From Candidatus Woesearchaeota archaeon (GTDB lineage Archaea > Nanobdellota > Nanobdellia > SCGC-AAA011-G17 > GW2011-AR18): DNA of 64,000 bases. Of this stretch, positions 1 through 20,542 are shown piece by piece (position 1 is the stretch's first letter; the number at the start of each line of letters is the position of its first letter). Both the position numbers and the translations under genes were made by a program. The DNA lies in assembly GCA_964497265.1 (NCBI GenBank), contig CAZCCK010000002.1, positions 20,614-84,613 of the forward strand, written 5' to 3'. A model generated the notes under the pieces. That model was not told where the DNA came from, did no database searches, and was given only the letters and a program-made list of their open reading frames with translations.

Positions 1-634
1 GTCCTGGTTCAGGGAATACTTCTTCAGGTGTGATTGACGAACCTCCTCCACCTCCACCTCCGCCACCGCTATCTCCAGAAGGAGGGGTTCCACTAGGAGG
101 GACATCGCTCGGAGGAGGTGTTTCTCCTGGAGGGACATCGCTAGGAGGAGTTTCTACAACAGAAGAGGAAGAGGAACAGCAGATAAGGAGTGGTGCAGTT
201 GGATCGTTACAATCATAAACATGTGCGTCAGTTGGATCGCTTAATCTTAAAACACATTTTTGATCTGAAGCACAAACATCAGTAGTTGAGGTGCAGCTAA
301 AATCAGAATAGCAAAGAGGGGTAGGATCACTTCCATAGGGAATGCCTGCGTGATATCCGCGAAGAGGATCTACATTGATAATAGCGTTTGATCCAGTGCA
401 AGTATGAACGTCTGAAGAAGCGGGCTCATTATTATTGCACAGAGAATAGGTGTAAGTCGTACTGTCCCAGGCTTGAGCGTGTGCATCTGTAGCTTTAGAG
501 AGTTTAAGAATCGTCGCACCGTCCGAAGTACAAGGATAGCTGCTAATAGAGGTGCTTAGTTCTGCGGCAAAAGCAAGAGAGGTAAAACTTAGAAAACAGA
601 GAAGAAAGATAACAGAGATCTTGGAGACGTTCAT
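1..634 (-). CDS. Secreted Cys-rich protein, 5'-partial at window edge (N-terminus at 634, continues past position 1)
   Basis: Minus-strand ORF not in the track because it has no stop in the window. ATG is at 632-634 (rc), 4 nt after the stop of the upstream LamG gene, so the two are tightly coupled. N-terminus is MNVSKISVIFLLCFLSFTSLAFA, a classic signal peptide. This is followed by a Cys-rich region with two copies of the motif L(K/R)LS..TDAH(A/V), then a Pro/Ser/Gly linker (PPSDVPP...GGGGGGGG). The track ORF 30..218(+) is the shadow of this linker. Confidence 0.5.
   Translation of the reverse strand, partial: MNVSKISVIFLLCFLSFTSLAFAAELSTSISSYPCTSDGATILKLSKATDAHAQAWDSTTYTYSLCNNNEPASSDVHTCTGSNAIINVDPLRGYHAGIPYGSDPTPLCYSDFSCTSTTDVCASDQKCVLRLSDPTDAHVYDCNDPTAPLLICCSSSSSVVETPPSDVPPGETPPPSDVPPSGTPPSGDSGGGGGGGGGSSITPEEVFPEPG
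104..168. repeat. Two tandem ~33-nt units inside a coding region (Pro/Ser linker of the partial protein)
   Basis: ggagggacatcgct(c/a)ggaggag(gt)gtttct occurs twice in tandem, encoding (minus strand) the repeated PPSDVPP(G/S)xTPP. Confidence 0.7.
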
Positions 635-638
635 AGGA

Positions 639-2678
639 TTAGCCTTGAAGTGGGGTCTGGTCTAGATTAGCCGGAAGACATTTGCAAGTTCTTCCGGAAG
701 TAGTATCCTGGCAAGTAGTTGCTTTTCCATCGTTAAGATGTGCGCTGTAACAAGTATATTCAATTGAAGCCGTTGTACAGATAGAAGTGCAACTTAAGCT
801 AGAGGTAGTATAGATTGTTGGAGCGAAAAACGCGTGTAATAATTCTTGAAGGCCGTTGATTTCGCCAACGTCATGTGAGCGAATGTGTCTTCGATTAGGA
901 GGAAAGGCAGGTGTAACAGTGGGGGGGATGTTGGATTGTCCTGGAGGAGTATGTGACGGTGGAGGGGAAGCTGCAGGAGGTGTTGTGCTTGGAAGAGTGC
1001 TTTGATATGCTGAAGCGACTTGTTGGGAAGTAAGAGCAGTATTAGGATAGACTTTTACATAATCCATGTATCCTACAAAGTATTGAGAACGTGGAGTGGA
1101 GCTTAAAGCAAGGTCAGGCCATCCGCCTAAGAGAAGATCATCGGATGCTGTAGCTGGTTTTAGAATAGGTGTCCAAGGACCAGTTTTAGCTAATTGTCCG
1201 TTAACGTAGAGTGTGGTAGTATGAGCGGTTTTGTCAAAGACCCAGACAAGATGAGTCCATGCGCGATTGTAATTTGTGCTACTAGCACCATAGGTAAGCG
1301 TGTCTTGAGTTGAATCTGCAAGAGAAACTTCATGTTCGCCTAAGCTAACAGAGTAAAGTCCTGCTAAGGTTTGACTTTGTTGAGTGATAATAGGATAAGC
1401 AATTGATGTGGTTGGTGCTGTAACAAGAGGATTAAGTAGTGAAGAGCGAGGCAAGGTTGAAATGCTAGTTGAAGGATTAAGGTAGACAAGTGCTTCGAAA
1501 GAGTATTGGTTAAAAGAATCTGCTTTTAGTGCGTCTGGAAGTTTTAAAGCTATTTTGTTTGAAGGAGCGAAGTTAAAAGAAGCGGTGTGACCTGGAACAG
1601 TAGTATAGTGAGAAGCGCCTGGCGTGTCTATACCAACAATGCTTGCTGAGTAAGTGCCTGAAGCATCGCTTAAAGAGTTTTCAAAGTTAAATGTGAATGA
1701 AGGAGGAAGAGGATTAGAGGGAAGGGGAGTAGGAGCAGATGTTGGAGCGGGTGTAATTGGAGCAGGGGGAGGAAGTTGACTGATCTGAGCAGGAGTTAAA
1801 GCTTGATTTTTATAAATTTCAACATAATCAATGTATCCTCCAAAATAACTATCCTGAGGGGGAAGCGCGGTTGTGAAGGTAGTTCCGCTTGTTGTTCTTG
1901 GAAGCACAGGTAATGCTCCTACAAGAAATTCATAGGTGGTTCCTGAAGGAACAAAATGGGCTACGTCCGAGCTTTTTGCAACAAGAACACCATTTTCATA
2001 GAGTTCTATTTTTCCAGGAGTGGAAGTTTTATCTACTAAAAGTGTGATCTGAGTCCATTTTCCAGTATAGGTTTGACCTGCAGGAAGAGCGCGGGTTAAA
2101 GCAAAACTAGGATTATCTGGTTTAAGAAGTTTAATTGAGTTTCCATTAATACCTAAAATGTAAAAAGAATTTTCAAGGCCGTTATATTCGCTTAAGATAG
2201 GAAAGTAGCCGAAGTTAGTAGAGCCACTAGCGTCTAGATAAACACGAGTGTTAAGAGTGAATTTAGAAAGTGAAGAAGTTTGAAGAGTAGAAGGGAATAT
2301 AACTGCAGGTAAAGTTTTACTGACGTGAAGTCCTTGTTGAACGCTACTATCGGGACTCCCGTATTTTGCTCCAAGCGCAGCATTTGGTCCATAAGGTTTT
2401 GCTTTGAAAAGGTTAGTAGAATCAGCAAGGCTATTTTCGAATTGGAATTTAACTGGTGCGGCGCTTACAGTTGAAGAGGGAGTAGTTGAAGAAGAAACTC
2501 TAGTTTCAGGAGCTTTAAGCGTGGAAGATTTGAAAAGAGAGGAAAGGTCAAAAGAAGCATATCCTGTTGTTGAAAAAAATTGACTTCCAACAAGTAAAAT
2601 AAAAACAAGAGAGACAACAATTAAAGAAAGAAGAGGGAGACTAATAGTTTTTTGTGAAGACACACCCTTTTTGCTCAT
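639..2678 (-). CDS. Surface protein with two LamG / concanavalin-A-like lectin domains, an N-terminal signal anchor and Pro/Thr-rich linkers
   Basis: N-terminal hydrophobic segment LPLLSLIVVSLVFILLVG. Two domains end in the Laminin_G_3-type signature (FGGYIDYVEIYKNQALTPAQISQL and FVGYMDYVKVYPNTALTSQQVASAY). PT-rich linkers (PPPAPITPAPTSAPTPLP; TPPAASPPPSHTPP). Cys-rich C-terminal tail. Confidence 0.6.
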   Translation of the reverse strand: MSKKGVSSQKTISLPLLSLIVVSLVFILLVGSQFFSTTGYASFDLSSLFKSSTLKAPETRVSSSTTPSSTVSAAPVKFQFENSLADSTNLFKAKPYGPNAALGAKYGSPDSSVQQGLHVSKTLPAVIFPSTLQTSSLSKFTLNTRVYLDASGSTNFGYFPILSEYNGLENSFYILGINGNSIKLLKPDNPSFALTRALPAGQTYTGKWTQITLLVDKTSTPGKIELYENGVLVAKSSDVAHFVPSGTTYEFLVGALPVLPRTTSGTTFTTALPPQDSYFGGYIDYVEIYKNQALTPAQISQLPPPAPITPAPTSAPTPLPSNPLPPSFTFNFENSLSDASGTYSASIVGIDTPGASHYTTVPGHTASFNFAPSNKIALKLPDALKADSFNQYSFEALVYLNPSTSISTLPRSSLLNPLVTAPTTSIAYPIITQQSQTLAGLYSVSLGEHEVSLADSTQDTLTYGASSTNYNRAWTHLVWVFDKTAHTTTLYVNGQLAKTGPWTPILKPATASDDLLLGGWPDLALSSTPRSQYFVGYMDYVKVYPNTALTSQQVASAYQSTLPSTTPPAASPPPSHTPPGQSNIPPTVTPAFPPNRRHIRSHDVGEINGLQELLHAFFAPTIYTTSSLSCTSICTTASIEYTCYSAHLNDGKATTCQDTTSGRTCKCLPANLDQTPLQG

Positions 2679-2725
2679 AAATCAGTTTCTCAAAAAACTA
2701 GTATTTAAATGTTTCTAAAAAAAAT

Positions 2726-4684
2726 TTATTTGAACATATCGAATGCGCCGGCTGGCGGATCTGAAGGATTAGAAGAAGAAGTATTTTTAGTAGAATCATT
2801 AGTCTTAGTAGAGTCATTAGAGTTTGAGGGAGAATAATTAGAACTTGGTGAAGAATAACTTCCGCCGTAATAAGTGCGTTGTTTGTTTCTTTCGTCGTCT
2901 TGAATCATTTTTGTCATGCGTTTTCTAAAGTCTTCAATATCTTTTTCGTCTGCGATTCCGTATTTAGGTTTTTGTTCTTTAGTATACTCAGTCGAATTAT
3001 ATTCCGTTTGTATAGACTGTTTTTTTACTTTAGGCCTAATTGTGATTTCTTCATGGATAACTCTTTTTTCTTTGTGAGGTTTTAGAATAAAAATCAAAGC
3101 AACGACAATTACTAAAAATCCTAGAAGCAAAAGCAGAGAGTTTCCTGGAGAGTGGAGATTTCCAATGGCGTTACCCGTTACTGAGGAAAGATCGTCTAAG
3201 AGACCCGGACTTGGGGGAATTTGAACATTATCAAATTTATCTCCTGTAAAAGGAATTGTAACCGTATAATTCCCTGCCTCGAAAAGTTTAGAAAGTTTTA
3301 CGCGCGCTTCTTCTCCAAGTCCAAGCTTGAGATCTTTCCCACTGGGTTTATCTTGAGTGTTTACTTGTAAGAAGTCTTTGAAAGGAACATTTCCTTTATT
3401 TTTTACGACTAATTCCGTCCCATCTAGTTGAACATCTAAAGATTTGAGTTCTCGGACAGTAATAATTCTTTCATCATGAAGTCCAAAGCCATCTAGCTTA
3501 AGTTTCCATGTTCCCGGAAGAGATTGGCTGGGAACTTCTAAAGTGTCTGCAATGTTTGTTTGAACCAATTGTTGATACTTAGATTCTCCTTGACTGTTCA
3601 AAAGTGCGAGGTTAACTGTCGCAACCATCGGATCTTTAGCTTGATCTAAAAGCACGGTTAGGAAAGGAATTTTTTCTTCTGGAACAAAACTACTTTGATT
3701 AACTTGTAAAATTAAGGTAGTTGGTATTCCTTGAATAGTAAAATTTTCTTGGATAACACCAATATTTCCTTGTTGGTCTTTGGCGTTGATAGTATAGCTA
3801 TGGTCTCCACTCTTAATCGTTGTTGGAATAAGGTAAGAGAATTTATAGAATTCGTCACTTGTTTCTAGAGTTTGAGTTTTAATTAAAGTGTCATCTATTT
3901 GGAAAGATACGCTCAATGATTTAAGGACAGAACCGATTTTAGATTTAACGTTGCCAGTAAGAGTGAAAGTTTCTCCAGGTTTGTAAATATTTTTTTCAGG
4001 ATGCGCGACAACATCCAAATTTCCTTCTAAAGTAAAGTTGTAAATATTAGAAAAAGTTTTTTGATTGCCTTCATTATCTTTAGCTTCAATATCTAAAGTG
4101 TAAATTCCTGGAGGTAGTAAGCTTAAGTCTTTGGTCAGACTTAAAGTACCGAGTTTAATTGGAGCGCTATCGCGACTTATGATTTGATCTTCTTTTTTAA
4201 ATTTCAAGACTGCAAGTCCATCTATACCTACACCATTGTATTTAGAGACAACACCTTTGACATCTAAATGTTCTCCAAGTTGATAAGAAGGTTTTAGAGA
4301 TTCGAAGTTCGCAAGTAAATCAGACGTGATAACAAATTCATTAGATTTTTGTTGTTCAAGTAAAGCTCCTTGTTCGTTCAAAAGACCAACATTGACAAAA
4401 CAAGTGCCAGTCTGTCCTTCAGGAGCGATAAAAAGTTGAGAGAAGCTGGAGGCTTTATTTTCTTCAAGGTCGATAAGTTTTGTAGAAATGGGTGTGGGTT
4501 GGCTGCATTGGAGAGTAATCGCAACTTGTCCTCGAAAGCTTGCGTTTTCTTCAACTTGTCCTGAAACAAGAAGTTTATCTCCAAAATTATAGAGGATAGA
4601 AGGAGTGTGATCTACATTGATATTTGCACTTACAAGGGGTAGGAGTAAAAGAAAACTAAAGAATAAGACATTAATCGACCTCAT
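2726..4684 (-). CDS. Large surface (S-layer-like) glycoprotein candidate with Ig/CARDB-like beta-sandwich repeats and a C-terminal TM anchor
   Basis: N-terminal signal peptide MRSINVLFFSFLLLLPLVSA. About 470 aa of repeated beta-rich segments with many N-x-S/T sequons (NASF, NFTL, NQSS, NFTI, NYTV). C-terminal TM helix LLLLLGFLVIVVALIFIL followed by a Lys/Arg-rich then Ser/Asn-rich tail. It lies about 2.5 kb upstream of aglB. Confidence 0.55.
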   Translation of the reverse strand: MRSINVLFFSFLLLLPLVSANINVDHTPSILYNFGDKLLVSGQVEENASFRGQVAITLQCSQPTPISTKLIDLEENKASSFSQLFIAPEGQTGTCFVNVGLLNEQGALLEQQKSNEFVITSDLLANFESLKPSYQLGEHLDVKGVVSKYNGVGIDGLAVLKFKKEDQIISRDSAPIKLGTLSLTKDLSLLPPGIYTLDIEAKDNEGNQKTFSNIYNFTLEGNLDVVAHPEKNIYKPGETFTLTGNVKSKIGSVLKSLSVSFQIDDTLIKTQTLETSDEFYKFSYLIPTTIKSGDHSYTINAKDQQGNIGVIQENFTIQGIPTTLILQVNQSSFVPEEKIPFLTVLLDQAKDPMVATVNLALLNSQGESKYQQLVQTNIADTLEVPSQSLPGTWKLKLDGFGLHDERIITVRELKSLDVQLDGTELVVKNKGNVPFKDFLQVNTQDKPSGKDLKLGLGEEARVKLSKLFEAGNYTVTIPFTGDKFDNVQIPPSPGLLDDLSSVTGNAIGNLHSPGNSLLLLLGFLVIVVALIFILKPHKEKRVIHEEITIRPKVKKQSIQTEYNSTEYTKEQKPKYGIADEKDIEDFRKRMTKMIQDDERNKQRTYYGGSYSSPSSNYSPSNSNDSTKTNDSTKNTSSSNPSDPPAGAFDMFK

Positions 4685-4727
4685 GAAAAAGCTATAATGA
4701 AGGGAGTTTATAAAGTTTATGGGGGTT

Positions 4728-4746
4728 TTAAGTTAATTTTAAATAG
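4728..4746 (+). promoter_or_regulatory. TATA-like box of thrS
   Basis: ttaattttaaata lies about 25-30 nt upstream of ATG 4768, so the transcript is probably leaderless. Confidence 0.35.
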
Positions 4747-4767
4747 GGGGTTTCTTCTGGTTTGAGA

Positions 4768-6480
4768 ATGGTAGATCTAGAGAGAATTCGTCATTCAAGT
4801 GCGCATGTTTTAGCTGCAGCAGTAAAAAAGTTGTGGCCTGATACAAAACTAGGGATAGGTCCGGTTATTGAAGACGGTTTTTATTATGATATTGATACAA
4901 AGCATGTTTTCACGCCAGAAGATTTTCCTAAGATTGAAAAGGAAATGGAAGCTATCATAAAGAAAGATGAAAAGTTTGAAAGAAAAGTTCTTACGCAAAG
5001 TGAAGCTAAAAAGCTATTCAAGCTAGACCCATACAAAAGCGAATTAATTGAAGACATTCAAAGAAAAGGAGAGGAGATTAGTATTTATCAAACAGGAGAG
5101 TTTGTAGATCTTTGTCACGGACCGCATGTTTCATCTACGAAAGAGATTGGTGCTTTTAAGTTGTTAAAGATCGCGGGTGCGTATTGGAAAGGAGATGCGA
5201 AAAATTCTCAGATGCAAAGAATTTATGGGACTGCTTTCGCTTCCAAAAAAGAGCTAGAGGAATATTTGCATAGGTTAGAAGAAGCCAAGAAGAGAGATCA
5301 TAGAATTCTTGGAGAACAGTTAGATTTAGTTATGATTCATGAATATTCTCCAGGTTCTCCTTTTTTCTTACCTAAGGGAACAATCATCTATCTAGAGTTG
5401 ATGAAGTTCATAAGAGAAGAATATCAAAAGAGAGGCTTCAAAGAAGTAATTACTCCTTTATTATTTAATAAAAAATTATGGGAGACTTCTGGACATTGGG
5501 AACATTATAAGGATAATATGTTTAATATTGAAATTGAAAAGGAGACGTTTAGTTTCAAGCCGATGAATTGTCCTTCTCATTGTTTGATTTACAAAAGAAA
5601 GTTGTGGAGTTATAGAGAATTGCCTTTGAGAATAGCAGATTTTGCAGCGTTACATAGAAATGAACTTTCCGGAACATTGAGTGGATTAACAAGAGTAAGA
5701 AAGATGAGCCAGGATGATGCTCATATTTTTGTTACAAAGGATCAGTTAGAAGAAGAAATAAAAGAAATCTTAGATTTTGAAAAGTTTGTTTACGAAAAAA
5801 TTTTCAAGTTTGAGTATCATATGTATTTAGGAACAAGACCCGATAATTTTTTAGGTGAAAAAGAAGTTTGGGATAAAGCTGAGAAAATCTTAGAAGACGT
5901 TTTGAAAGAGAAAAAAATCACCTACACCCTTATGCCTAAAGACGGCGCGTTTTATGGTCCTAAAATAGATCTAAGAGTAAAAGACGCTTTAGGAAGAGAG
6001 TGGCAGCTTGCAACCGTGCAGCTTGATTTTCAGATGCCATTAAGGTTTGATTTAAGTTATGAGGGTGCAGATGGAAAAAAACATAACCCGATTATGATTC
6101 ACAGAGCAGTGTTGGGAACTTTAGAGCGGTTTATTGGAGTATTGATTGAGCATTTCGCAGGTAAGTTTCCAGTTTGGTTGTCTCCAGTACAGGTGTCTTT
6201 AATTACAGTTGCGGATAGACATATTCCTTTTGCGAATGAACTTAAAAAAGAATTCGAGTCACAAGGATTAAGAGTGGAAGTTGATGCTCGGACTGAGAGT
6301 ATAGGTAAAAAAGTAAGAGATAATCAAGCAGAGAAAATTCCATACGTAGTAACGATTGGAGATAAAGAGATGGAGTCTGGAAATTTAGCAGTTAGAGATA
6401 GGAATAATCAGGTAAATATATTAAAGAAAGAAGTTTTCCTAGAGCAAGTAAAGAAAGAGGTTGCGCAGAGGCAATGTTAG
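4768..6480 (+). CDS. thrS: Threonyl-tRNA synthetase (class II). It has the N2 editing/SAD domain but no N-terminal TGS (N1) domain
   Basis: HxxxH (HSSAHVLAAAV) and CxxxH (CHGPHVSS) zinc motifs of the ThrRS/AlaRS second additional domain. Class II core motifs (FRAx, GAFYGPKIDL, HRAVLGTLERFIGVLIEH). C-terminal anticodon-binding domain. The track start at 4762 is TTG; the first ATG is at 4768, about 25 nt downstream of a TATA-like box, so the transcript is probably leaderless. Confidence 0.9.
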   Translation: MVDLERIRHSSAHVLAAAVKKLWPDTKLGIGPVIEDGFYYDIDTKHVFTPEDFPKIEKEMEAIIKKDEKFERKVLTQSEAKKLFKLDPYKSELIEDIQRKGEEISIYQTGEFVDLCHGPHVSSTKEIGAFKLLKIAGAYWKGDAKNSQMQRIYGTAFASKKELEEYLHRLEEAKKRDHRILGEQLDLVMIHEYSPGSPFFLPKGTIIYLELMKFIREEYQKRGFKEVITPLLFNKKLWETSGHWEHYKDNMFNIEIEKETFSFKPMNCPSHCLIYKRKLWSYRELPLRIADFAALHRNELSGTLSGLTRVRKMSQDDAHIFVTKDQLEEEIKEILDFEKFVYEKIFKFEYHMYLGTRPDNFLGEKEVWDKAEKILEDVLKEKKITYTLMPKDGAFYGPKIDLRVKDALGREWQLATVQLDFQMPLRFDLSYEGADGKKHNPIMIHRAVLGTLERFIGVLIEHFAGKFPVWLSPVQVSLITVADRHIPFANELKKEFESQGLRVEVDARTESIGKKVRDNQAEKIPYVVTIGDKEMESGNLAVRDRNNQVNILKKEVFLEQVKKEVAQRQC

Positions 6481-6947
6481 ATGTAAAGAGTTCCTATGAA
6501 CGTCTGACAAAAGCGGAAAATTTTAAAGCGCCTGGTTTTTTATGCGGAATATTTGTGATGTCTTCACCAGAGCTTTTAGAGAAGGCAGATTTGCAGTTTG
6601 ATTTTTATGATAAGAAGAAAGATAAGATTACAAGTTTTACGTTAGGAGAGAAGATAAAAGAGGTTAATTCTGAAGCCGATGTTTTCAAAGAGGAGAATAC
6701 AACAGTTAATGAGTTAGATTTAGAGGAAGTAAAAGTTTCTTGGCAAGAAAGTCTAAAGAAAGCAAGAACGTTGTTAGAGCATGAAAGTGAAAGCAAGATT
6801 ATTTTAGTGTTGCAAAAGTCAGATGTTCCTTTTTGGAATGTGAGTCTGCTAACAACCATTTTTAATTTACTAAATGTGAAAGTAAACGCTCAAACTGGAG
6901 AGGTTATAGAACATAAAAAAGTTTCATTGTTAAGTTTTAAGAATTGA
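6474..6947 (+). CDS. Hypothetical acidic protein
   Basis: Overlaps the thrS stop (ATGTTAG). K/E-rich, coding-like composition, no recognisable motif. Confidence 0.3.
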   Translation: MLDVKSSYERLTKAENFKAPGFLCGIFVMSSPELLEKADLQFDFYDKKKDKITSFTLGEKIKEVNSEADVFKEENTTVNELDLEEVKVSWQESLKKARTLLEHESESKIILVLQKSDVPFWNVSLLTTIFNLLNVKVNAQTGEVIEHKKVSLLSFKN

Positions 6948-7218
6948 TTACTTGAATTAATTTTACCTTACTGGTCAAGCCGGATTTTATCAATACTTTT
7001 TTCCCTAGTTCTTTGGACAAGAGTTTGAGGAGGGCTTTATTCGCGCGGTTATTTTCGGCAGGTTCTTGAAGTGAAACTAAGTAAGCTTGATGTTCAAGGG
7101 AATAACTAAGAAATTTATTTTCACAAGCGTTTGTTTTTACAATCACTTTAAAGATGTCTGGAAGCATACAGAAATTTTAACAGGAAACTATTTAAAGGTA
7201 GATCAAATTGCGGTTTCA

Positions 7219-9873
7219 ATGACTGAGGGGCAGAGTCAAGATCTTCTAAAAGAACGCAAAGAGAAAGTAGTAACGTATCTTAAAGAGAAGAAAGATTGGT
7301 TTCAATATTTGATTTTAGCTCTTATCATTTGGATAGGCGCGTATGTCAGAGGGTTAGATTTGCCAAATCTAAAAGATATTACAACAGGATTACCTATTTC
7401 TTTAGAGCTTGATTCTACACTTTGGTTAAGATATGCGAGAGCGATTGTAGAGCATGGTTCTTTGTTCAAGGTCGATCCATTGCGTTACGTGCCGCTAGGC
7501 GCAGATATTAGAAATTTGGCTACTTTTACTTCTTATTTTATTGCTTATTTGTACAAAATCTTACACGTATTCAATTCTTCGGTTACGATTGGTTACGCGA
7601 ATAATGTATATCCGATTGTTGCTACAGCGATAATGACTTTTTTTCTTTTTCTTTTAGTAAGGAGATTGTTTGATTGGAAAACCGCGTTAGTTGCTTGTGC
7701 TTTTATTAATGTGAGCCAAACATTTTTCTTTAGAAGTCTAGGCGGATCTTCAGATCATGATATTTTAGGTGCAATGTGGATTATCATGGCATTTTATTTC
7801 TATGTGAGAGGATGGCAATCTAAAAAGAAAGTTGAAAATAGGGCTTGTGCGGTTTTAGCAGCATTAATAACTTCATTAGCGACAATTACGGCTGGTTCTT
7901 ATACATTTATTCTGATGGTGATTGGAGCGGTTAATTTATTTGAGATATTCCTCAATAAGTTTGAGCAGGAGGATTATTACAATTTGCTGACTTACCTTGT
8001 TTCCTTCATGTTGTTTTTCAAGATTTTTAATTCGACTAATTCCATTGTTCCGCTTTTCACTTCCTTAACCACAGGCTCAGTTTATCTTGCTCTAGCGATA
8101 GGAACGATAAATTGGGTAGTTTTCAAGAAAAGGTGGTTAGACAAGATAAGTTATGTACATAAGTACAAAGAAAAAGTTCCTGAAGGAATTTTTAGTTTCG
8201 TTTTAGGTGTATTAATTTTGCTTATCGGAGCTACACTTATTTTTGGACCCAGCTTTTTTATTGAAAAGATAGGAGATCTTTACAGCGTAGTTTTCAAAGC
8301 GTTTAATTATTCGAGATGGGCGTTGACAGTTGCAGAAAACAAAACTCCTTATGTAAAGGATTGGTTCGATCAAATGGGAACGCTTTACGTTTGGGGATTC
8401 ATTATTGGTTCAGTCCTATTATTTTACAACGCTGTGAAAAATTTAAAGAGAGCGTTACCTCTTACGGGAGCTTATACGTTTTTCATTTTCGGCTACATCT
8501 TCTCACGTTATTCAGGAGACAGTATTTTGAATGGATCAAGTTTAATTTCTAAGGGATTGTTTTATGCGGCTATCCTGGTCTTTATTGGAGTAATAGTGTA
8601 TGAGTATTGGAAAATGTTCAAAAGTAGAGATGGAGAGTTTGAAAAGATTAAAGAGATTAACCGAAGATATGCTTTCGTTTTGATGTGGTTCTTAATTATG
8701 ATTCTAGCTGCTGCTTCAGCGATTCGTTTATTATTTGATTTCACACCAATAACAACGATTATTGCAGCGTTTTTAGTGGCAAGTATTTTCGATTATTTTT
8801 ACAGCCTAAAGAATGTGTATTTGAGAAATTTTGGGATTTTCGCTCTTGCTTTAGTATTATTAAGTCCGTTTTCTTTTGCTCAGGGAATTTTGATTTCTGA
8901 GTATCATGCTTCTGAAGGACAAGCAAGATCAGCAGGACCTCAATACAACGCGCAATGGCAAGAAGCTGGAGCGTGGGTAAGAACAAATACCCCGCCAAAC
9001 GCAGTCTTTGCGCACTGGTGGGATTATGGGTATTGGGTACAAGAAGGATTTCAAAGAGCAACGATTACAGATGGAGGGAACTTCTTTGGATGGTGGAATT
9101 ATCTAATGGGAAGAAATGTTTTGACAGGTCAATCCGATGAAGAAGCATTACCTTATTTGTATGCACATAATGCGACTCATCTTTTGGTTCTTGCAGATGA
9201 TGTTGGTAAATATCCTGCATACGCGTCTATTGGTTCAGATAAAAATTATGATCGTTATTCGTTCATTAATACATTTGGATTAGATAAGCAAAACTCTATT
9301 GAAAAAAGAGATGAAACAGTATTACTTTATCAGGGGGGATTTCCTTTAGATGAAGATTTAATTTTGAATGGAAAAGTTTATCCTGCCAGCCAAGCTGGAA
9401 TTGGCGCGGTTATTGTTAATATGAAGCAAAACGGTCAGAATACAGATATTGGTCAGCCAAGAGCTGCTGTTGTTTATCAAGATCAAAGAGTAGATTTACC
9501 CATAAGGTGCATTTTTATTAATGGGCAATTGATTGAATTTAATAATTATAGTTTAGATGGATGTTTTAGAGTCATTCCTGTTATTAATAGTCCAACACAA
9601 ATAGATCCGATTGGCGCGGGCTTTTGGTTATCAAACAGAACGTATCATTCAAGAGTGGGACAATATTATATATTAAACCAAGAATCTAAAAATTTCAAAC
9701 TAGTCTATGATGATTCAAGCAAAATTCCTTTAGCGATCTACCAAGGCCATATTATCGGGCCAATGAAGATTTGGGAGATTAAGTATCCACAAGGATTAAC
9801 TCTTTCCGACAAAGAAAAAGAGTATTATTTAAGGACAGATTATCCTGATGAAGAGTTGTTAAAACCTAGGTAG
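7219..9873 (+). CDS. aglB: Archaeal oligosaccharyltransferase AglB (STT3 family, GT-C)
   Basis: Multi-TM N-terminal half. Acidic first external loop (GLDLPNL...LELDSTLWLRYAR). Hallmark WWDYGYW motif (AHWWDYGYWVQEGFQRATITDGGN). Large C-terminal soluble domain. The track start 7087 is TTG; the first ATG with a sensible N-terminus is 7219 (MTEGQ...). Confidence 0.9.
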   Translation: MTEGQSQDLLKERKEKVVTYLKEKKDWFQYLILALIIWIGAYVRGLDLPNLKDITTGLPISLELDSTLWLRYARAIVEHGSLFKVDPLRYVPLGADIRNLATFTSYFIAYLYKILHVFNSSVTIGYANNVYPIVATAIMTFFLFLLVRRLFDWKTALVACAFINVSQTFFFRSLGGSSDHDILGAMWIIMAFYFYVRGWQSKKKVENRACAVLAALITSLATITAGSYTFILMVIGAVNLFEIFLNKFEQEDYYNLLTYLVSFMLFFKIFNSTNSIVPLFTSLTTGSVYLALAIGTINWVVFKKRWLDKISYVHKYKEKVPEGIFSFVLGVLILLIGATLIFGPSFFIEKIGDLYSVVFKAFNYSRWALTVAENKTPYVKDWFDQMGTLYVWGFIIGSVLLFYNAVKNLKRALPLTGAYTFFIFGYIFSRYSGDSILNGSSLISKGLFYAAILVFIGVIVYEYWKMFKSRDGEFEKIKEINRRYAFVLMWFLIMILAAASAIRLLFDFTPITTIIAAFLVASIFDYFYSLKNVYLRNFGIFALALVLLSPFSFAQGILISEYHASEGQARSAGPQYNAQWQEAGAWVRTNTPPNAVFAHWWDYGYWVQEGFQRATITDGGNFFGWWNYLMGRNVLTGQSDEEALPYLYAHNATHLLVLADDVGKYPAYASIGSDKNYDRYSFINTFGLDKQNSIEKRDETVLLYQGGFPLDEDLILNGKVYPASQAGIGAVIVNMKQNGQNTDIGQPRAAVVYQDQRVDLPIRCIFINGQLIEFNNYSLDGCFRVIPVINSPTQIDPIGAGFWLSNRTYHSRVGQYYILNQESKNFKLVYDDSSKIPLAIYQGHIIGPMKIWEIKYPQGLTLSDKEKEYYLRTDYPDEELLKPR

Positions 9874-9903
9874 TTTTAAAAGGTTTTGCTAGTTGCTAGA
9901 AAG

Positions 9904-11577
9904 ATGCGAAATGCAACTAAAAAGCTTGTTTATTTTTATTTGTTTTTAGTGATAGCAAAAATCATTCTTTCTTTATTTGTTACCGCTCCTTCTGTATTCT
10001 CAGACGAGTACGTATACGCAAAGTTAGCAAGAGGTATTTTTTTTAGTGGAGAATTAAAAATTCATCAAGGAATTTTTACGACTCAGCAAATGCCGTTTTA
10101 TCCATTAGTTATTTCAATTGCTTATATTTTAAAAGATGTGGATCTAGTCTATCTAGTGATAAAAGGGCTGAATGCGCTATTACTAACATTGAGTATATTT
10201 CCAGTATTTTATTTAGCGAAGGATTTTGTCGATGAGAAAAAAGCTTTTTTTGTTGCAGCGATAGTGAGTTTTATTCCTAGTCTGTTTATTACTTCTTTTT
10301 ATATTATGTCTGAAAACGCGTTTTATCCCTTATTTTTATTCTGGATTTTTTTTACGTATAAAGCGCTGAAAGAAGAAAGTTCTTCTTATTTTATTCTTGC
10401 AGGCGGAGCATTAGGACTATGTTTCTTATCAAGGTTTATTGCTTTAGGATTAATTCCGGTTTTATTTTTAGTAAGTATTTTAAAAGTAAAAAAGGTAGGG
10501 TTAAAAAATATAGTATACTACTACACCCCCCCATTAGGAATGATTGCGTTGTGGTTCTTAAGGAATTTGAATTTGACAAAAGAAGCAAGTCAAGTTACGG
10601 GCGTGTATAGCGCTGTAGGAGAGAAATTAATTAATAGCGTTACCGTTTTAATTTTACCATTTGCAAATTGGATTTTGTTATATCTGGGTTATCTTTTGTT
10701 TTCTTCTGGAATTATTTTTGGGATTTACGCTCTTCTTTGTTATAAGATAAAGGACAAAAATCTAAAAATCTTATTTAGTTTATTTTTGTTAAGTTCATTA
10801 ATCTTTGTTCTTGCTGCGGCAAATGAATCTAGTTCTTTTAGAATATTTTTTGAGTCTCCATTTTTGTTTTTTACAAGAAGACCTTTAGGCAGATACGTTG
10901 AGTGTGTAACACCATTGCTAGTTCTTTTAGGTTTCATTGGATTTGAAAAGATAAAGATAAACAATCCTAATTGGAAGAAATTACTTTTATATTCAAGTTG
11001 CTTGCTTCTTTTAACAAGTCAGTTAACAATCGCGCCTTTATTCCCCTTTAATAATTCAAATGTAACTGCTTTAGGCGTTGGAAAATATATTTTAGATATA
11101 ACTTTTGTAGGAAAGTTTGTTGACACTCAAATTGTATATCCTAGTTTTTTTATTCTTGCTTTAGTTTTGGTAGTTTTACCTTGGTTTTTTTTAAAGAAAA
11201 AATCTTGGCAACCTAAATTAATCATGATCTTTTTTATCGTATCTTCAATAGCTGCTTTTGGAGTGACCTACAAAGAAAGTGAGAAATGGTCACAAAGTCC
11301 TCAAATGAAATTTGGTCACGAAATTGAGAAAGAATATCCTTCAAGTAAAATAATTCTCTTTGATGAAAGAGATTGTGTTGAGCAACTTTCGTTAACCCAA
11401 GAGGGAGAGATTTGTGAAAAGAGTAAAAAATCTACCTTAATGGGATTTTGGTTGAATAAGGACATAATAATTGGAAATGTGGAAACGCAAAAAGCGGATT
11501 TAGTTATAAGTAAACATCAGCTAAACTTAAAAAAGGTTAAGGATTTAAATGGAGGCGTTTTTGTGTATCAACCATGA
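9904..11577 (+). CDS. GT-C superfamily membrane glycosyltransferase (ArnT/PMT/GT39-83-like), lipid-linked-sugar dependent
   Basis: About 13 predicted TM helices. Conserved acidic DE motif in the first extracytoplasmic loop (FSDEYVYAKLARGIFF). No WWDYG motif. The track start 9886 is TTG; the first ATG is 9904. Confidence 0.5.
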   Translation: MRNATKKLVYFYLFLVIAKIILSLFVTAPSVFSDEYVYAKLARGIFFSGELKIHQGIFTTQQMPFYPLVISIAYILKDVDLVYLVIKGLNALLLTLSIFPVFYLAKDFVDEKKAFFVAAIVSFIPSLFITSFYIMSENAFYPLFLFWIFFTYKALKEESSSYFILAGGALGLCFLSRFIALGLIPVLFLVSILKVKKVGLKNIVYYYTPPLGMIALWFLRNLNLTKEASQVTGVYSAVGEKLINSVTVLILPFANWILLYLGYLLFSSGIIFGIYALLCYKIKDKNLKILFSLFLLSSLIFVLAAANESSSFRIFFESPFLFFTRRPLGRYVECVTPLLVLLGFIGFEKIKINNPNWKKLLLYSSCLLLLTSQLTIAPLFPFNNSNVTALGVGKYILDITFVGKFVDTQIVYPSFFILALVLVVLPWFFLKKKSWQPKLIMIFFIVSSIAAFGVTYKESEKWSQSPQMKFGHEIEKEYPSSKIILFDERDCVEQLSLTQEGEICEKSKKSTLMGFWLNKDIIIGNVETQKADLVISKHQLNLKKVKDLNGGVFVYQP

Positions 11578-12458
11578 AAGTTGTCGTAACAATTCCCGCT
11601 TATAACGAAGAGAAAACGTTAGGAAAAGTAATTGAAGATATTAAAAAGATTATGGATGAAAATAAGTATAATTATAAAATTCTCGTAGTTAATGATGGTT
11701 CCAGGGATAAAACTGCCGAAATAGCAAAGAAGGCGGGAGCTATTGTCTTTTCTCATCCGTTTAATATGGGTCTTGCAGAAACGTTTAGAACTGAAATGAA
11801 GAAGTGTTTGGAATTAAAGGCGGATATTATTGTGCATACTGACGCCGATGGGCAGTATCTTGCTTCAGATATTCCTCGTCTGATCGATCCGGTTGTTAAA
11901 GGAGAAGCAGATTTAGTATTAGGATCACGTTTTAAAGGAAAGATTGAGTCTATGCCGTTGATTAAAAGGTTAGGGAACAAAGCGTTTTCTCATGTAATTT
12001 CAAAGATTACCAAGCTGAAAATTTCAGATGGTCAAACAGGTTTTAGAGCGTTCACAAAAAAAGTTGCTGAGGCGATTCCGGTTATTTCTACGCACACGTA
12101 TACTCAAGAAACAATTATTCGAACTGCGCATCACAAGTTTAGAATTAAAGAAGTTCCCGTGTATTTTGCAAAGAGAGATGGAAAGTCAAGATTAATTTCT
12201 AATCCTTTTGAGTATGCGATTAAGGCTTGGATTAATATTTTTAGGATTTATAGAGATCATGAGCCTTTGAGGTTTTTCGGTCTGTTTGGAGGAGCTTTTA
12301 TTTTGTTAGGGCTAATCTTAGGTGCTTCTTTAACATATATTTTTTTAAGAACGGGCAAAGTGGGCCATATTCCTTTAACTATTTTAAGTATGCTTTTGAT
12401 TATCGTTGGATTACAGATAGTGTTGTTTGGATTCTTAGCAGATATGAATAAAAGATAA
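11574..12458 (+). CDS. GT2 glycosyltransferase, DPM1/GtrB-like polyprenyl-phosphate sugar synthase with a C-terminal two-TM anchor
   Basis: VVTIPAYNEEKTL...VNDGSRDKT...TDADGQ (DxD). Two C-terminal TM helices. ATGA overlap with the upstream gene. Confidence 0.8.
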   Translation: MKVVVTIPAYNEEKTLGKVIEDIKKIMDENKYNYKILVVNDGSRDKTAEIAKKAGAIVFSHPFNMGLAETFRTEMKKCLELKADIIVHTDADGQYLASDIPRLIDPVVKGEADLVLGSRFKGKIESMPLIKRLGNKAFSHVISKITKLKISDGQTGFRAFTKKVAEAIPVISTHTYTQETIIRTAHHKFRIKEVPVYFAKRDGKSRLISNPFEYAIKAWINIFRIYRDHEPLRFFGLFGGAFILLGLILGASLTYIFLRTGKVGHIPLTILSMLLIIVGLQIVLFGFLADMNKR

Positions 12459-12474
12459 AATGGATGAAACAGAG

Positions 12475-13704
12475 CTACTTCGATTTCGCAGCAAGTTGAT
12501 AAACGTTAAGTGTGTCTTTAAGCATTCTAGGTAAGTTCCAAAAAGAAGAAATTTTTTCTCTTCCGAGTCTACCCATTTCTTGGGCTTTTCGAGGATTTGA
12601 AAAGAGGTCTATGACCGCGTCAGAGATTGCTGCTGGATCTTTAGGAGCGACAAGATAACCTTCTTTAGAGGTTATAAGTTCTGGCTGACCTCCAACATTT
12701 GTACCAACAACAGGGGTGGCGGTCATCATTGCTTCCATATACGCTTGAGCGAGTTGTTCGATAATTGGTGGCATGACAAAGACGTTTGCGTTTTGTAAGT
12801 AAAGGGGAACTTCTTTAGGATCGAGATAGTCCTTAAATTCAAAGCTTTGCGCAAGATTGTTTTTCTGAACAAAATTACGAATCATTTTTTTATAGAGAAA
12901 AGATGCGCTTCCAACAAGAATGAATTTTGTTTCTGGGAATTTTTCAAGAATTTTGGGTGCGGCTTTAACAAGATAGATTGCTCCTTTGCGTTCCATGTTT
13001 GCGCCTATGAAGAGGACTGTTTTTTTCTGATATTTATCTTTTGGAATTGGAACGTCATATTTAGGAATGTTAATTCCTCTATAAACGACATGCATTTTTT
13101 CTTGGGGGAGAGCGTATTTTTTAGTGAGAAGGTTTGCTGCGTATTTGCAGTTTGGAATGATAAAGGTTGCGCCTCGAAGAGTTCGAACATAGAGGTATTT
13201 GATAAGATTATGATGAAGATAGCGGATAGGCATGTCTGTGGATTTGAAATGAAATTTGAAAGGATTCCATGAAGAGCCAACAATGTAATAATCATTAATA
13301 GAAACGATAGTAGGAAAATAAGAGTGGAGATAGGTATGATCCAAAAATGCTGCGTCTCGTAAGGTAATACTATGCAAAAGATCATATTTTGTGAGATCTA
13401 AAGTGCCAGATTTAAGGAAGGCGTTTGCTTTTTTAGCAAAGAGAGTATGCTTGTCTAAGAAGCTCCGGTTTTCTTTAGCTAAAGTTATTTTTTTTTGGAG
13501 GGGAAGACGATAGATAGTAAGATTGTCTATGACTTCATAGTCTAGACTAGTAGCATCATGTTTTGGTGTTAGAAGAGTGATTTTATACTGCTCTTTATAG
13601 TCCGTTTTCAGATAATTAATAAGGTTAAAAGCGTACATTCCTGTACCTGCAAGAGGATAAGGAGGGTATTCAAAACTGATGAGGATAATATTTAATGGTT
13701 TCAT
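12475..13704 (-). CDS. GT4 family glycosyltransferase
   Basis: GT-B fold with the C-terminal E-x7-E region (EAMMTATPVVGTNVGGQPELI). Confidence 0.8.
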   Translation of the reverse strand: MKPLNIILISFEYPPYPLAGTGMYAFNLINYLKTDYKEQYKITLLTPKHDATSLDYEVIDNLTIYRLPLQKKITLAKENRSFLDKHTLFAKKANAFLKSGTLDLTKYDLLHSITLRDAAFLDHTYLHSYFPTIVSINDYYIVGSSWNPFKFHFKSTDMPIRYLHHNLIKYLYVRTLRGATFIIPNCKYAANLLTKKYALPQEKMHVVYRGINIPKYDVPIPKDKYQKKTVLFIGANMERKGAIYLVKAAPKILEKFPETKFILVGSASFLYKKMIRNFVQKNNLAQSFEFKDYLDPKEVPLYLQNANVFVMPPIIEQLAQAYMEAMMTATPVVGTNVGGQPELITSKEGYLVAPKDPAAISDAVIDLFSNPRKAQEMGRLGREKISSFWNLPRMLKDTLNVYQLAAKSK

Positions 13705-13779
13705 AGAAAAAAGAGAATAGATGGCTTTAAAAGATTTACTTAGGACAAAAATTATAAAGAGAGCGCTCTAACCAATAAG

Positions 13780-14139
13780 ATGGAAAAGTACATTCAAGAG
13801 TTAATGAAAGTCAAGGGTATTCTTGACGCTAAACCAATAGAAGGAACTCAGAAGAATGTGTTAACCAATTTAGAAAGTGAAAACAATATTGGTATGTTAG
13901 CGTGTTTACAAAGAACCAATGTGGTGGTAGTAGTTCATAATGAAGCGTTCCGCAAGCCTCTTGGATCGTTAGTTCAGGTTGAGGAGGGAAAGGTAGTGTT
14001 TCCAGGGTTGCCTTTTCCTGAAGTAAAGGCGAAAAACGTCATCTCCGCCTCTCCGTCTAAGGATGCGCACGATTTTTTAAGAAGAGAATTTGGATGGGAA
14101 GAAAATACTTTAGCGACGATTCTTATTGGTTTTGATTAG
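13780..14139 (+). CDS. Hypothetical small protein
   Basis: ORF in a divergent intergenic region. No recognisable motif. Confidence 0.3.
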   Translation: MEKYIQELMKVKGILDAKPIEGTQKNVLTNLESENNIGMLACLQRTNVVVVVHNEAFRKPLGSLVQVEEGKVVFPGLPFPEVKAKNVISASPSKDAHDFLRREFGWEENTLATILIGFD

Positions 14140-14192
14140 GTTTAAAGACGAAAAAGGAAGGTTTAAATAGAAAATCCTAATAATCGAAGAAG

Positions 14193-15662
14193 ATGGATAA
14201 AAGCACAATTGGAAAGGGTGAAACTCTTCTCATAGTTCCTCCAAATAGAAGTTACGATCGCAGGTTGCCTTTAGGAGTAATGCAGATTTCTTCTTATCTA
14301 ACAAGTAAAAACTTCGAAAATGATATTCTTGATTTTAAAGGAATTGAGCAAGAAAAGGGAATGGAGAAGATAAAAGAAGCGATTCTGAAATCTAAGCCAA
14401 AGTTTGTAGGGATGTCTTGTTTTATTACAGAACTTCCAATTTTAAAAGAGTTATGTGAATTTATAAAGAAAGAAAACAAAGATACTGTTATTATCATTGG
14501 CGGACCTTATCCTACTGAGAGGCCAGATCATTTTGTGGAAAAAGAGATAAAGTTTGATTATTTAGTTTTAGGTGAGGCTGAAGAAAGTTTTTATGAGTTA
14601 ATTAAAGAGATTAAAGAAGGAAGAGATGGAAAAGAGTTGAAGGGAGTTGCTTATCTTAAAGAAGGAAAATTAATAAAAAATGCTAGTCGTCCTGACGTTC
14701 AGAATTTAGATGAGCTTCCTTTTCCAGCATATGAAAAAGTTGATATGAAGTATTACACTCAGCCTAATTCTTGGACGATTCGAGGAGTGTATCTTTCTTC
14801 CTTGTTGATGTTTACAGCCAGAGGATGTCCTTATGTGTGTAAGTTTTGTACGGTGAGAGATAGAAGGCCGAGGATGATGAGTCCTAAGAAGATTGTCGAT
14901 CATTTAGAATTATTAGTTAAGAATTATAAGATTGATGGTATTCAATTTGGGGATGATACCTTTACGTTATATCGGTGGAGAGTATATGAGATTTTCAAGT
15001 TGATTAAAGAGAGAGGAATTAAGTTAATTTATGGTATTCAAACAAGAGCAGATTTGTTAGATGAGGAGTTAGTAAAGTTCTTGAAAGAAAATGGAGTTAT
15101 TCAAGTAAACATGGGTATTGAATCTGGTTCTGATAAAATGCTTAAAGTGGTAGATAAACGTGTTACTGTTGCTAGAATTCGACAAACAGCTCAGGTTTGT
15201 AGAACGTTAGGAATGAGGATGTCCGCATTTATGATGATTAATATTCCTGGAGAAACCAAGGAAGATATAGAAGAATCGTTAAAGTTAGTGAAGGAAATGA
15301 AGTTTAACGTGACCCAGTGGAGCGTGTATAATCCTTATCCTGGAACAGATTTAGGAGGAGAATTAGATTTAGAAGATCTTAATGTAATTTCAAAGTTTCC
15401 ATCAAAAGAGTCGATGGAGCTTATTGAAAAGAAGTATAAGTATGCGACTTATCCTGATCGCTTGGCTGATATGTTAGCGTATATTCACTCACAAACGTTT
15501 AATGTAAGAAATGTGAAGATGATTCTTGGTGGGGATTATATTCCTTCATTTTTTAGGTTCGTTTCTTTTATGTTTGATGGAAATTATTTTAAGAAGCTTG
15601 GAACAAGTAAGAGAAAGTTAGATTATATTACCAGTATTAAAAGTCAGTTTTTAGGATTATAA
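14193..15662 (+). CDS. B12-binding (class B) radical SAM protein
   Basis: N-terminal cobalamin-binding-like domain, then the radical SAM cluster motif TARGCPYVCKFCTV (CxxxCxxC). Confidence 0.85.
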   Translation: MDKSTIGKGETLLIVPPNRSYDRRLPLGVMQISSYLTSKNFENDILDFKGIEQEKGMEKIKEAILKSKPKFVGMSCFITELPILKELCEFIKKENKDTVIIIGGPYPTERPDHFVEKEIKFDYLVLGEAEESFYELIKEIKEGRDGKELKGVAYLKEGKLIKNASRPDVQNLDELPFPAYEKVDMKYYTQPNSWTIRGVYLSSLLMFTARGCPYVCKFCTVRDRRPRMMSPKKIVDHLELLVKNYKIDGIQFGDDTFTLYRWRVYEIFKLIKERGIKLIYGIQTRADLLDEELVKFLKENGVIQVNMGIESGSDKMLKVVDKRVTVARIRQTAQVCRTLGMRMSAFMMINIPGETKEDIEESLKLVKEMKFNVTQWSVYNPYPGTDLGGELDLEDLNVISKFPSKESMELIEKKYKYATYPDRLADMLAYIHSQTFNVRNVKMILGGDYIPSFFRFVSFMFDGNYFKKLGTSKRKLDYITSIKSQFLGL

Positions 15663-16588: not shown

Positions 16589-16625
16589 AATTTTAAGAGA
16601 AAAAGTTTGTTTTTATAGTTTTGGT

Positions 16626-17891: not shown

Positions 17892-17904
17892 CACTTTTTG
17901 TTGA

Positions 17905-19679: not shown

Positions 19680-19739
19680 AGAAAAAAGAGAAATAAAAGC
19701 TATTTAAAGATTATTAAAAAGAAAAAAAGAAAGTAGAGT

Positions 19740-20471: not shown

Positions 20472-20492
20472 TAAGTATCACTCCTCTTTTAA
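20300..20492. repeat. Dispersed duplicated module, copy A: ribosome-binding site plus first ~57 codons of the Cys-rich protein gene
   Basis: Near-identical at the nucleotide level to 52462..52645 (about 7 substitutions in the ~110-nt core I aligned by eye, plus one small indel). Confidence 0.8.
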
Positions 20493-20520
20493 TTAATTTA
20501 AGAAATAATTTTGATTAAAG

Positions 20521-20537
20521 GTATATATATATATATC
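20521..20537 (-). promoter_or_regulatory. (TA)7 TATA-like tract in the promoter of Cys-rich gene A
   Basis: tatatatatatatat lies about 50 nt upstream of the ATG at 20471, followed by an AT-rich spacer and a GAGGAG ribosome-binding site. Confidence 0.4.
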
Positions 20538-20542
20538 GTTTT

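Follow-up and report, generated by a model that had tools for sequence, protein, structure and literature searches.

Arrays of β-sandwich domains of the macroglobulin (MG) type (MG2, PF01835) are found in α2-macroglobulin, the complement components C3-C5, CD109, and bacterial A2M. In archaea, surface layer (S-layer) and anchor proteins such as SlaB are exported proteins built of β-sandwich domains, and three proteins of Nanobdella aerobiophila (MJ1_0299, MJ1_0309, and MJ1_0707) are S-layer anchor candidates with 13-17 sequons each (10.1101/2023.10.27.564410). Here, we analyse a 64,000-nt stretch of contig CAZCCK010000002.1 from a Candidatus Woesearchaeota archaeon (hereafter, the window), of which positions 1-4684, the region studied, hold three open reading frames (ORFs), termed C, B, and A in the order of their transcription. 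All three lie on the minus strand and at the coordinates given by an initial annotation of this DNA. The principal subject is protein C, a member of an extensive family in which a C-terminal peptide is conserved. With a rough probability of 55%, C is a conserved envelope protein that couples a β-sandwich array outside the cell to a putative cytoplasmic partner, and B and A form an accessory operon beside it.

2726..4684, minus strand (read from 4684 to 2726): gene C, a 652-aa type-I single-pass membrane protein, as judged from the ORF list, homologues, and an AlphaFold2 model
639..2678, minus strand (read from 2678 to 639): gene B, 679 aa, two LamG domains and a C-terminal region with six cysteines
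1..634, minus strand (read from 634 to 1): gene A, 5′ part, 211 aa, continuing beyond the window edge

Protein C shares MG-type β-sandwiches with the α2-macroglobulin family but differs from it in several respects. The α2-macroglobulin and thioester proteins comprise approximately 1,300-1,700 aa, compared to 652 aa for C, which has only five domains and two cysteines, contains no CGEQ, and is devoid of the thioester domain, bait region, CUB, and receptor-binding domain. The presence of only two cysteines, and of only five β-sandwiches in the model, indicates that C does not carry the thioester machinery. The global TM-score of ~0.22 further indicates that the domain arrangement differs, and the transmembrane helix and cytoplasmic tail of C have no counterpart in the α2-macroglobulin family. 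Compared to the Nanobdella candidates, C has five ectodomain sequons instead of 13-17, and a long conserved tail or a terminal motif has not been reported for those proteins. No sequence or structural match of C to a solved S-layer protein was present among the matches listed.

Architecture and topology of protein C

The portion of C that precedes the tail can be divided into three features.

4625..4684, minus strand: signal peptide, aa 1-20, with predicted cleavage after VSA (between …LPLVSA and NI) and a Kyte-Doolittle hydropathy of 2.1 in its core
3218..4624, minus strand: ectodomain of five β-sandwich domains (macroglobulin/Ig/CARDB-like)
3083..3139, minus strand: transmembrane helix, aa 516-534, with a Kyte-Doolittle hydropathy of 3.3 over 19 aa, modelled by AlphaFold2 as a helix at 516-533

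Across 101 homologues, the Ala at position −1 of the predicted cleavage site (Ala20 of C) shows a conservation of at least 90%. The alignment of these 101 sequences was also used for an AlphaFold2 model of C, which has a mean predicted local distance difference test score (pLDDT) of 86.5. Ig/CARDB-like folds, for which the initial annotation had proposed structure prediction, are borne out by this model; it shows five β-sandwiches at aa 21-120, 124-220, 222-317, 323-410, and 416-489, each with a pLDDT above 95. In addition, the Pfam family MG2 (PF01835) is matched above its cut-off.

The indicators of topology agree with each other. An N-out/C-in orientation of C is predicted from the signal peptide, from the only two cysteines, an invariant pair (Cys60 and Cys95) in the first outside domain, from the distribution of Lys and Arg around the transmembrane helix (none in the 15 residues before it versus four in the 15 residues after it), and from the net charge of the tail, for which the family median is +10. 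These same indicators contradict an inverted topology with an O-glycosylated stalk, which had been offered as one option for the C-terminal stretch, and are in agreement with the other option, a cytoplasmic interaction region.

The ectodomains of the family are uniformly conserved, showing 27-33% identity and 0-3% gaps in all five domains. Such uniformity would be expected of a conserved structural contact, as in a lattice, a complex, or an envelope layer, and not of a variable host adhesin. It thus argues for a conserved structural interaction of the ectodomain rather than for a rapidly diversifying adhesin.

The cytoplasmic tail and its terminal peptide

In the AlphaFold2 model, the tail of C is disordered at residues 536-569, forms a helix at residues 580-605 (pLDDT ~85), and is again disordered toward its end. 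Column counts over the 101 sequences show that three parts of the tail are conserved: a juxtamembrane Lys/Arg cluster, a helix block, and the extreme C-terminus. Between the latter two lies the Ser/Asn-rich stretch to which the initial annotation had drawn attention.

2870..2962, minus strand: cytoplasmic helix block, aa 575-605, YGIADEKDIEDFRKRMTKMIQDDERNKQR, conserved in the 101 sequences and modelled as a helix at 580-605
2753..2869, minus strand: Ser/Asn-rich low-complexity linker, aa 606-644, predicted to be disordered with pLDDT below 50
2729..2752, minus strand: extreme C-terminal motif, aa 645-652, AGAFDMFK-stop, with the family consensus G-[LM]-F-[NSD]-M-F-[DGKN]-COOH

The helix block is amphipathic and has the family consensus [FY]-G-x-A-x-E-x-D-[IV]-x-D-F-[KR]-x-R-[MVI]-x-K-x-I. 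The Ser/Asn-rich stretch, in contrast to the conserved parts, has an aligned counterpart in no more than 19 of 100 homologues, where the identity is 14%. Other Ser/Gly/Pro-rich sequences are found in its place in close homologues of C, and the family tail is rich in Lys, Glu, and Arg, with 6.5% Ser. Because the stretch is poorly conserved and replaced in relatives, it appears to act as a disordered spacer and not as a conserved phosphorylated region. The suggestion that it is the functional part of the tail is therefore not upheld; it is, on this comparison, a lineage-specific disordered linker.

The C-terminal octapeptide is the best-conserved segment of C, with 46% identity to the window protein. 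A strict pattern for the terminal motif is matched by 88 of 137 family members, and a loose pattern by 111 of 137. With a further pattern for the motif, which is matched by 90 members, 81 of the 90 have exactly one residue behind the last Phe, and this terminal residue is Asp in 37 of the 90. A fixed single residue behind the final Phe fits recognition of the terminal carboxylate. Furthermore, the motif is amphipathic, placing L, F, M, and F on one face (hydrophobic moment of 1.56 for AFDMFK), and Lys-rich residues lie directly N-terminal to it. When the window and eight related loci (L001-L008) were scanned for the motif, it was present in family members only.

Since conservation is seen in the helix block and the C-terminal motif but not in the linker, the tail can be viewed as two conserved elements held apart by a variable spacer. 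Moreover, a flexible tether that ends in a short amphipathic peptide, at a fixed distance from the carboxylate, corresponds to the design of a docking peptide.

A large family in DPANN archaea

The size of the family becomes apparent only in an exhaustive search. A word-indexed search returned five relatives of C, and the profile of 101 sequences returned only six proteins in such a search. When 1.84 billion representatives of 50%-identity clusters were searched with HMMER and without an index, 1,861 of them were found at E≤1e-3, including 839 at E≤1e-30, and the family thus spans at least 1,861 clusters. Nearly all of the best 150 of the 1,861 are 580-680 aa in length and have a common layout, consisting of an N-terminal hydrophobic segment, an ectodomain of ~490 aa, one transmembrane helix, and a tail with a median length of 95 aa. 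The members that carry an organism label all come from metagenome-assembled genomes of Woesearchaeota, Pacearchaeota, or Nanoarchaeia (DPANN), and the ordinary members are all named 'hypothetical protein'. Literature searches covering surface proteins of DPANN archaea, C-terminal motifs, and macroglobulin domains yielded no description of the family. Collectively, C represents a new, very large, unannotated, and DPANN-wide family with a conserved cytoplasmic C-terminal peptide.

A sub-branch of six sequences (P0004, P0045, P0111, P0112, P0135, and P0137) departs from the common layout. These proteins have a shorter ectodomain, which is devoid of one β-sandwich domain, followed by a transmembrane helix and a cytoplasmic region of 240-280 aa. 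One of the six, P0004, is named an adenylate/guanylate cyclase domain protein by NCBI. With an MG/Ig-like ectodomain as its sensor, the sub-branch, or at least P0004, would constitute a receptor cyclase of archaea, and the fusion to a cyclase in these paralogues implies that a related ectodomain can act as a sensor too. The idea that the helix block is common to C and these paralogues was rejected, as the alignment gives no support for it.

Sequons and the proposed link to AglB

Genes A, B, and C had been described as lying immediately upstream of aglB and as encoding the main substrates of an adjacent AglB, with C dense in N-x-S/T sequons. Sequons, defined as N-x-S/T in which x is not Pro, were therefore counted and set against the expectation from composition.

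Other 53 ORFs of the window: 91 observed versus 89.9 expected, a ratio of 1.01
Mature A: 0 versus 1.3 expected; the one sequon of A is at residue 2, within the signal peptide
B: 0 versus 6.5 expected (Poisson P=0.0015)
C ectodomain: 5 versus 4.7 expected
C tail behind the transmembrane helix: 5 versus 1.6 expected, due to its Ser/Asn composition
133 family ectodomains: 354 versus 648 expected, a ratio of 0.55, with a mean of 2.7 each and none in 26

Five of the 10 sequons of C are thus located in the tail. AglB works on the outer face of the membrane, and the tail sequons would consequently be irrelevant if the tail is cytoplasmic. The description of C as a 652-aa protein with a signal-like N-terminus, one transmembrane helix, a Lys/Arg-rich stretch, and a Ser/Asn stretch at about residues 606-644 stands, but the claimed density of sequons does not. 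C could carry N-glycans, while B and the visible part of A could not be modified at canonical sequons. For B, the result looks like selection against N-glycosylation of an exported protein.

The arrangement of the genes between C and aglB is as follows.

4685..4761, no strand: intergenic region of 77 bp between the divergent genes for C and threonyl-tRNA synthetase (ThrRS), with a TATA-like TTTATAAA at 4707-4714
4762-6480, plus strand: ThrRS
6474-6947, plus strand: ORF of 157 aa, sharing the last 7 nt of the ThrRS gene
6937-7167, minus strand: DUF167 gene
7087-9873, plus strand: AglB/STT3-type oligosaccharyltransferase with a WWDYG motif (Pfam STT3 at 40.2 bits versus a cut-off of 24.5)

The trio is therefore not immediately upstream of aglB; it is 2.4 kb away, is transcribed in the opposite direction, away from aglB, and is separated from it by the genes for ThrRS, the 157-aa ORF, and DUF167. 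Related loci from genomes and metagenomes are consistent with this picture. Among 21 loci compared, 15 have enough flanking sequence, and the divergent pair of ThrRS and C is present in all 15, with ThrRS identity down to 47%. AglB is found beyond ThrRS in the closest clade only (L001/L005, L007, and L010), and it is absent beside C in L002/3, L008, L012, and L015-L019, in all of which ThrRS is present. The conserved neighbour of C is ThrRS and not AglB. Gene order and strand, sequon statistics, and synteny together provide no tie of C, B, and A to AglB, and neither C nor the B-A unit is functionally tied to AglB by the evidence presented here. The proposal that the three proteins are its main substrates finds no support on the same grounds, namely genes that are neither adjacent nor co-oriented, a B without sequons, a C that is not enriched in them, and a family that is depleted.

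Proposed role of C and its alternatives

The proposal that C couples the cell surface to a cytoplasmic partner, to which we assign the rough probability given above, builds on the architecture, fold class, topology indicators, family size, and conservation pattern of C, from which we infer a docking function and the existence of a partner. After removal of the Sec signal peptide, the fixed-length array of five macroglobulin/Ig-like β-sandwiches would stand outside the cell, one helix would span the membrane, and a strongly basic tail of ~95-120 residues would lie in the cytoplasm. In this tail, a conserved amphipathic helix would be followed by a flexible low-complexity linker, which is Ser/Asn-rich here, and by G-[LM]-F-x-M-F-x-COOH. 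This terminal sequence could serve as a tethered docking peptide, the hydrophobic face and free carboxylate of which enter a pocket of the putative cytoplasmic partner. C might thereby couple the external array to the cell interior, in the manner of a structural anchor or of a receptor, and B and A would form a lineage-specific accessory operon of exported proteins. Several points weigh against this proposal. The partner is only postulated, and approximately 19-36% of the representatives have no recognisable terminal motif, although some of these seem truncated. A short hydrophobic helix at the C-terminus could also attach to the membrane instead of a protein. In addition, the signal peptide and topology of C were read by rules and not by a trained predictor, and the roles offered for B and A derive from domain type only.

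The initial annotation regarded C as an S-layer glycoprotein candidate, and a SlaB-like S-layer anchor can be considered along with it, with A, B, and C as the main substrates of the neighbouring AglB. The signal peptide, the five β-sandwiches, and the C-terminal transmembrane helix are in keeping with this, as is the wide distribution and uniform length of the family, which would suit a core component of the envelope. A glycosylation cluster led by aglB is located 2.4 kb away and is kept nearby in the closest relatives, and in Nanobdella, a role as S-layer anchor was proposed for proteins of similar layout (10.1101/2023.10.27.564410). However, the Nanobdella candidates hold 13-17 sites, whereas C has five sequons against 4.7 expected, the family ratio is 0.55, and 26 of 133 ectodomains contain none, nor are any present in B or in mature A. 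Moreover, three genes stand between the trio and aglB, AglB is no longer linked in more distant relatives, a conserved tail of ~100 residues with a terminal motif is not a known feature of S-layer anchors, and no PGF-CTERM, S-layer Pfam, or NCBIfam match was found in C. An S-layer function of C is thus possible, with positive evidence limited to its generic architecture, but we consider it unlikely. By analogy with the cyclase-fused paralogues, C might instead be a signalling receptor that perceives a ligand or cell contact through its β-sandwich array and passes the signal on through its tail. The sub-branch that includes P0004, with its related ectodomain, transmembrane helix, and large cytoplasmic region, points in this direction, and because class III cyclases act as dimers, the ectodomain may dimerise as well. 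Yet no enzymatic or known signalling domain was detected in C by Pfam and NCBIfam, including any match to the catalytic domain of class III adenylate/guanylate cyclase receptors in its tail (Pfam), and the tail is mostly disordered except for one helix. The tails of the cyclase branch, in turn, have neither the helix block nor the terminal motif, the assignment as a cyclase comes from the NCBI name of one of the six sequences, P0004, and no cognate signalling genes are conserved near C in related loci. A receptor role of this kind is accordingly rated as distinctly unlikely.

Two further ideas concern the terminal peptide itself. The C-terminus of MinD (…KGFLKRLFGG) is membrane-targeting, and by analogy G-[LM]-F-x-M-F-x could be an amphipathic membrane-targeting helix that folds the basic tail onto the inner face of the membrane. 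The amphipathicity of the motif, with its moment of 1.56 for AFDMFK, the Lys-rich residues before it, and the strongly basic tail, which favours anionic lipids, are all compatible with such a helix. On the other hand, insertion does not need a strict spacing of one residue from the carboxyl end, the frequent terminal Asp (37/90) is unneeded and unfavourable, and C is already anchored in the membrane; we regard this explanation as very unlikely. The last idea is that the tail mimics the C-terminal peptide of the ribosomal P-stalk and, with the help of its strongly basic region, recruits translational GTPases (aEF1A, aEF2, and aIF5B), ABCE1, or ribosomes to the membrane. The eukaryotic P-stalk ends with …MGFGLFD-COOH. 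Its archaeal counterpart in P. horikoshii, aP1, ends with …EALAGLSALFG-COOH, in which L103, L106, F107, and the terminal carboxylate contact aEF1A, and factor binding is abolished by each of the substitutions L103S, L106S, and F107S (PMC4267659, PMC5887453). Both the P-stalk and C have a flexible charged linker followed by a short amphipathic peptide in the same register relative to the carboxyl end, with G at −5, L at −4, a hydrophobic residue at −1, F at 0, and one last residue that is often G or D (G-L-F-x-M-F-D/G-COOH for the C consensus, compared to G-L-S-A-L-F-G-COOH for archaeal aP1). Weak circumstantial hints are the invariant divergent pairing of C and ThrRS, the presence of aglB nearby in the closest clade, and a Pfam match below threshold (E=0.032) to Ribophorin II (second domain). 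C differs from the P-stalk in that it is a membrane protein without the N-terminal dimerisation/P0-binding domain of the stalk, and the linker by the motif is Lys-rich rather than acidic. Since the match covers 4-5 of 7 positions and was compared post hoc with several motifs, chance is a serious explanation of the likeness. Motifs of similar shape include HbYX of proteasome activators and PIP-box-like peptides (…TLFDFLK), and the aP1 gene of the source organism is not present in the window or the 21 loci. The resemblance may hold at the level of functional analogy only, and mimicry of the P-stalk seems a long shot. The coupling of an external array to a putative cytoplasmic partner is thus the role that we favour for C.

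Transcription units

The spacing of the three genes suggests two transcription units. C and B are separated by 47 nt.

2679..2725, minus strand: C-B spacer; a T8 run directly follows the C stop, and the B ATG is preceded at a distance of 23 nt by a TTTAAATA box

The T8 run behind C together with the TTTAAATA box in front of B suggests that C would be monocistronic and that B and A would form their own transcription unit. The gap between B and A is, as initially noted, only 4 nt (TAA-tcct-ATG). On the other side, the TATA-like TTTATAAA is located 23-30 nt upstream of the C ATG and is a candidate promoter element of C. Scans of the window with Rfam and for tRNAs found no RNA genes.

The putative accessory proteins B and A

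Protein B has a 20-residue hydrophobic segment (aa 12-30) behind a Lys-Lys N-terminus, which may act either as a signal anchor or as a signal peptide, followed by a Ser/Thr-rich linker. The two LamG domains assigned to it initially were recovered by Pfam, with Laminin_G_3 (PF13385) matching in two stretches at 82.7 bits versus a cut-off of 27.6. These LamG (ConA-like) domains lie at about aa 76-300 and 326-556 with Pro-rich linkers between them, and the two halves align to each other at E=4e-20. The C-terminal region at about aa 596-679 contains six cysteines. As for its composition, B comprises 29 Asn and 168 Ser and Thr residues, yet no N-x-S/T. It resembles LamG/ConA-like lectin proteins in having two such domains on an exported protein with Pro/Ser/Thr-rich linkers, but differs from them in the absence of a close homologue in the database searched (a search of 5.8 billion proteins returned B itself only), in the absence of sequons, and in a six-Cys region that matches no family. 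An AlphaFold2 model of B from the single sequence had a pLDDT of 33 and was uninformative.

Protein A is partial and Cys-rich, as previously described, with 11 Cys in its 211 aa. Its N-terminus is of the classic Sec type (MNVSK, a hydrophobic core, and …SLAFA before the cleavage site, followed by AE), and export or a surface location can be retained for A as well as for B and C. Three degenerate Cys-rich repeats with the pattern C-x6-8-[IV][LI]x[LV][SD]xxT/R-[DG]-[AY]-H (internal alignment at E=2e-6) share the core L-S-x-x-T-D-A-H, and are followed by a Pro/Ser/Gly-rich linker with a Gly9 run. A 62-aa ORF with a Pro9 run at 30-218 (plus strand) is the antisense of this Gly9 run and linker, and is an artefact rather than a gene. 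No relative of A was found in Pfam, NCBIfam, or PDB; PDB sequence searches with both A and B gave no match. Even at E values up to 10, Pfam provided nothing usable for the Cys-rich repeats of A, the C-terminal Cys region of B, or the tail of C.

No homologue of A or B is present in any of the 21 related loci, which suggests a lineage-specific insertion at a variable spot. In the relatives, C is followed downstream by a nucleotidyltransferase/HEPN pair or a serine hydrolase, and then by DUF357, a gene of the amino-acid-kinase fold, and a prenyltransferase. The site just downstream of C varies accordingly, with the nucleotidyltransferase/HEPN pair at 4840-5896 of L001 and the serine hydrolase at 12033-12581 of L002 (L002/L003). 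This site, which holds the LamG and Cys-rich genes in the window, resembles a small hot spot of accessory genes. The G+C content of positions 1-2500 is 42-48%, and horizontal transfer of A and B was considered for this reason. The idea was rejected, as the G+C content at third codon positions of A and B (0.25-0.29) equals that of the remainder of the window, and the excess is found in codon position 2, where it can be explained by their content of Ser, Thr, Pro, Ala, and Gly. A and B show no sign of recent transfer. By their domain types, B, with two lectin-like LamG domains, and A, with its Cys-rich repeats, would probably, or at least plausibly, bind ligands or the surface of a host cell.

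Neighbouring genes on the plus strand

ThrRS comprises 572 aa and shows tRNA_SAD, the class II core, and the anticodon-binding domain in Pfam, by which the TGS domain was not found. Its listed TTG start at 4762 may be wrong, and an ATG six bases downstream is an alternative. The 157-aa ORF has no match in Pfam or NCBIfam, probably shares a transcript with ThrRS, and has copies of 41-61% identity beside ThrRS in most of the related ThrRS loci; no match was found in L012, L015, and L018. The AglB ORF, as called, also opens at a TTG and overlaps the divergent DUF167 gene (6937-7167, minus strand) by 81 nt. With the in-frame ATG at 7219 (MTEGQSQD…), which may be the true start, the two genes would instead be 51 nt apart; counter to this, the tblastn alignment of AglB with a relative starts at residue 10 of the long form. 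Downstream of aglB, a large glycosylation/modification cluster extends over 9886-22003. It includes, as glycosyltransferases (GTs), a second GT-C/PMT_2-like protein (563 aa), GT2, and GT1/GT4, and further a GFO/IDH/MocA oxidoreductase, an LPG_synthase_TM-type membrane protein, and a methyltransferase. Three B12-binding radical S-adenosylmethionine (SAM) enzymes and a SPASM radical-SAM enzyme are also encoded, and so many radical-SAM genes would not normally be expected in an N-glycan cluster.

Implications for DPANN cell surfaces

The locus corrects an annotation shortcut, in that surface genes near aglB need not encode its substrates; here, the sequons are at or below expectation and the linkage is not conserved. 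If the resemblance of the terminal peptide to the P-stalk were to prove true, it would represent a 'ribophorin-like' link between envelope and translation beneath the surface array of ultra-small cells. Woesearchaeota, Pacearchaeota, and Nanoarchaeia of the DPANN archaea are abundant, mostly uncultivated, and thought to be attached to other cells, and their envelope proteins are barely known. The seven-residue peptide at the end of C provides a concrete, testable handle for finding the inside connection of the cell surface in these archaea.

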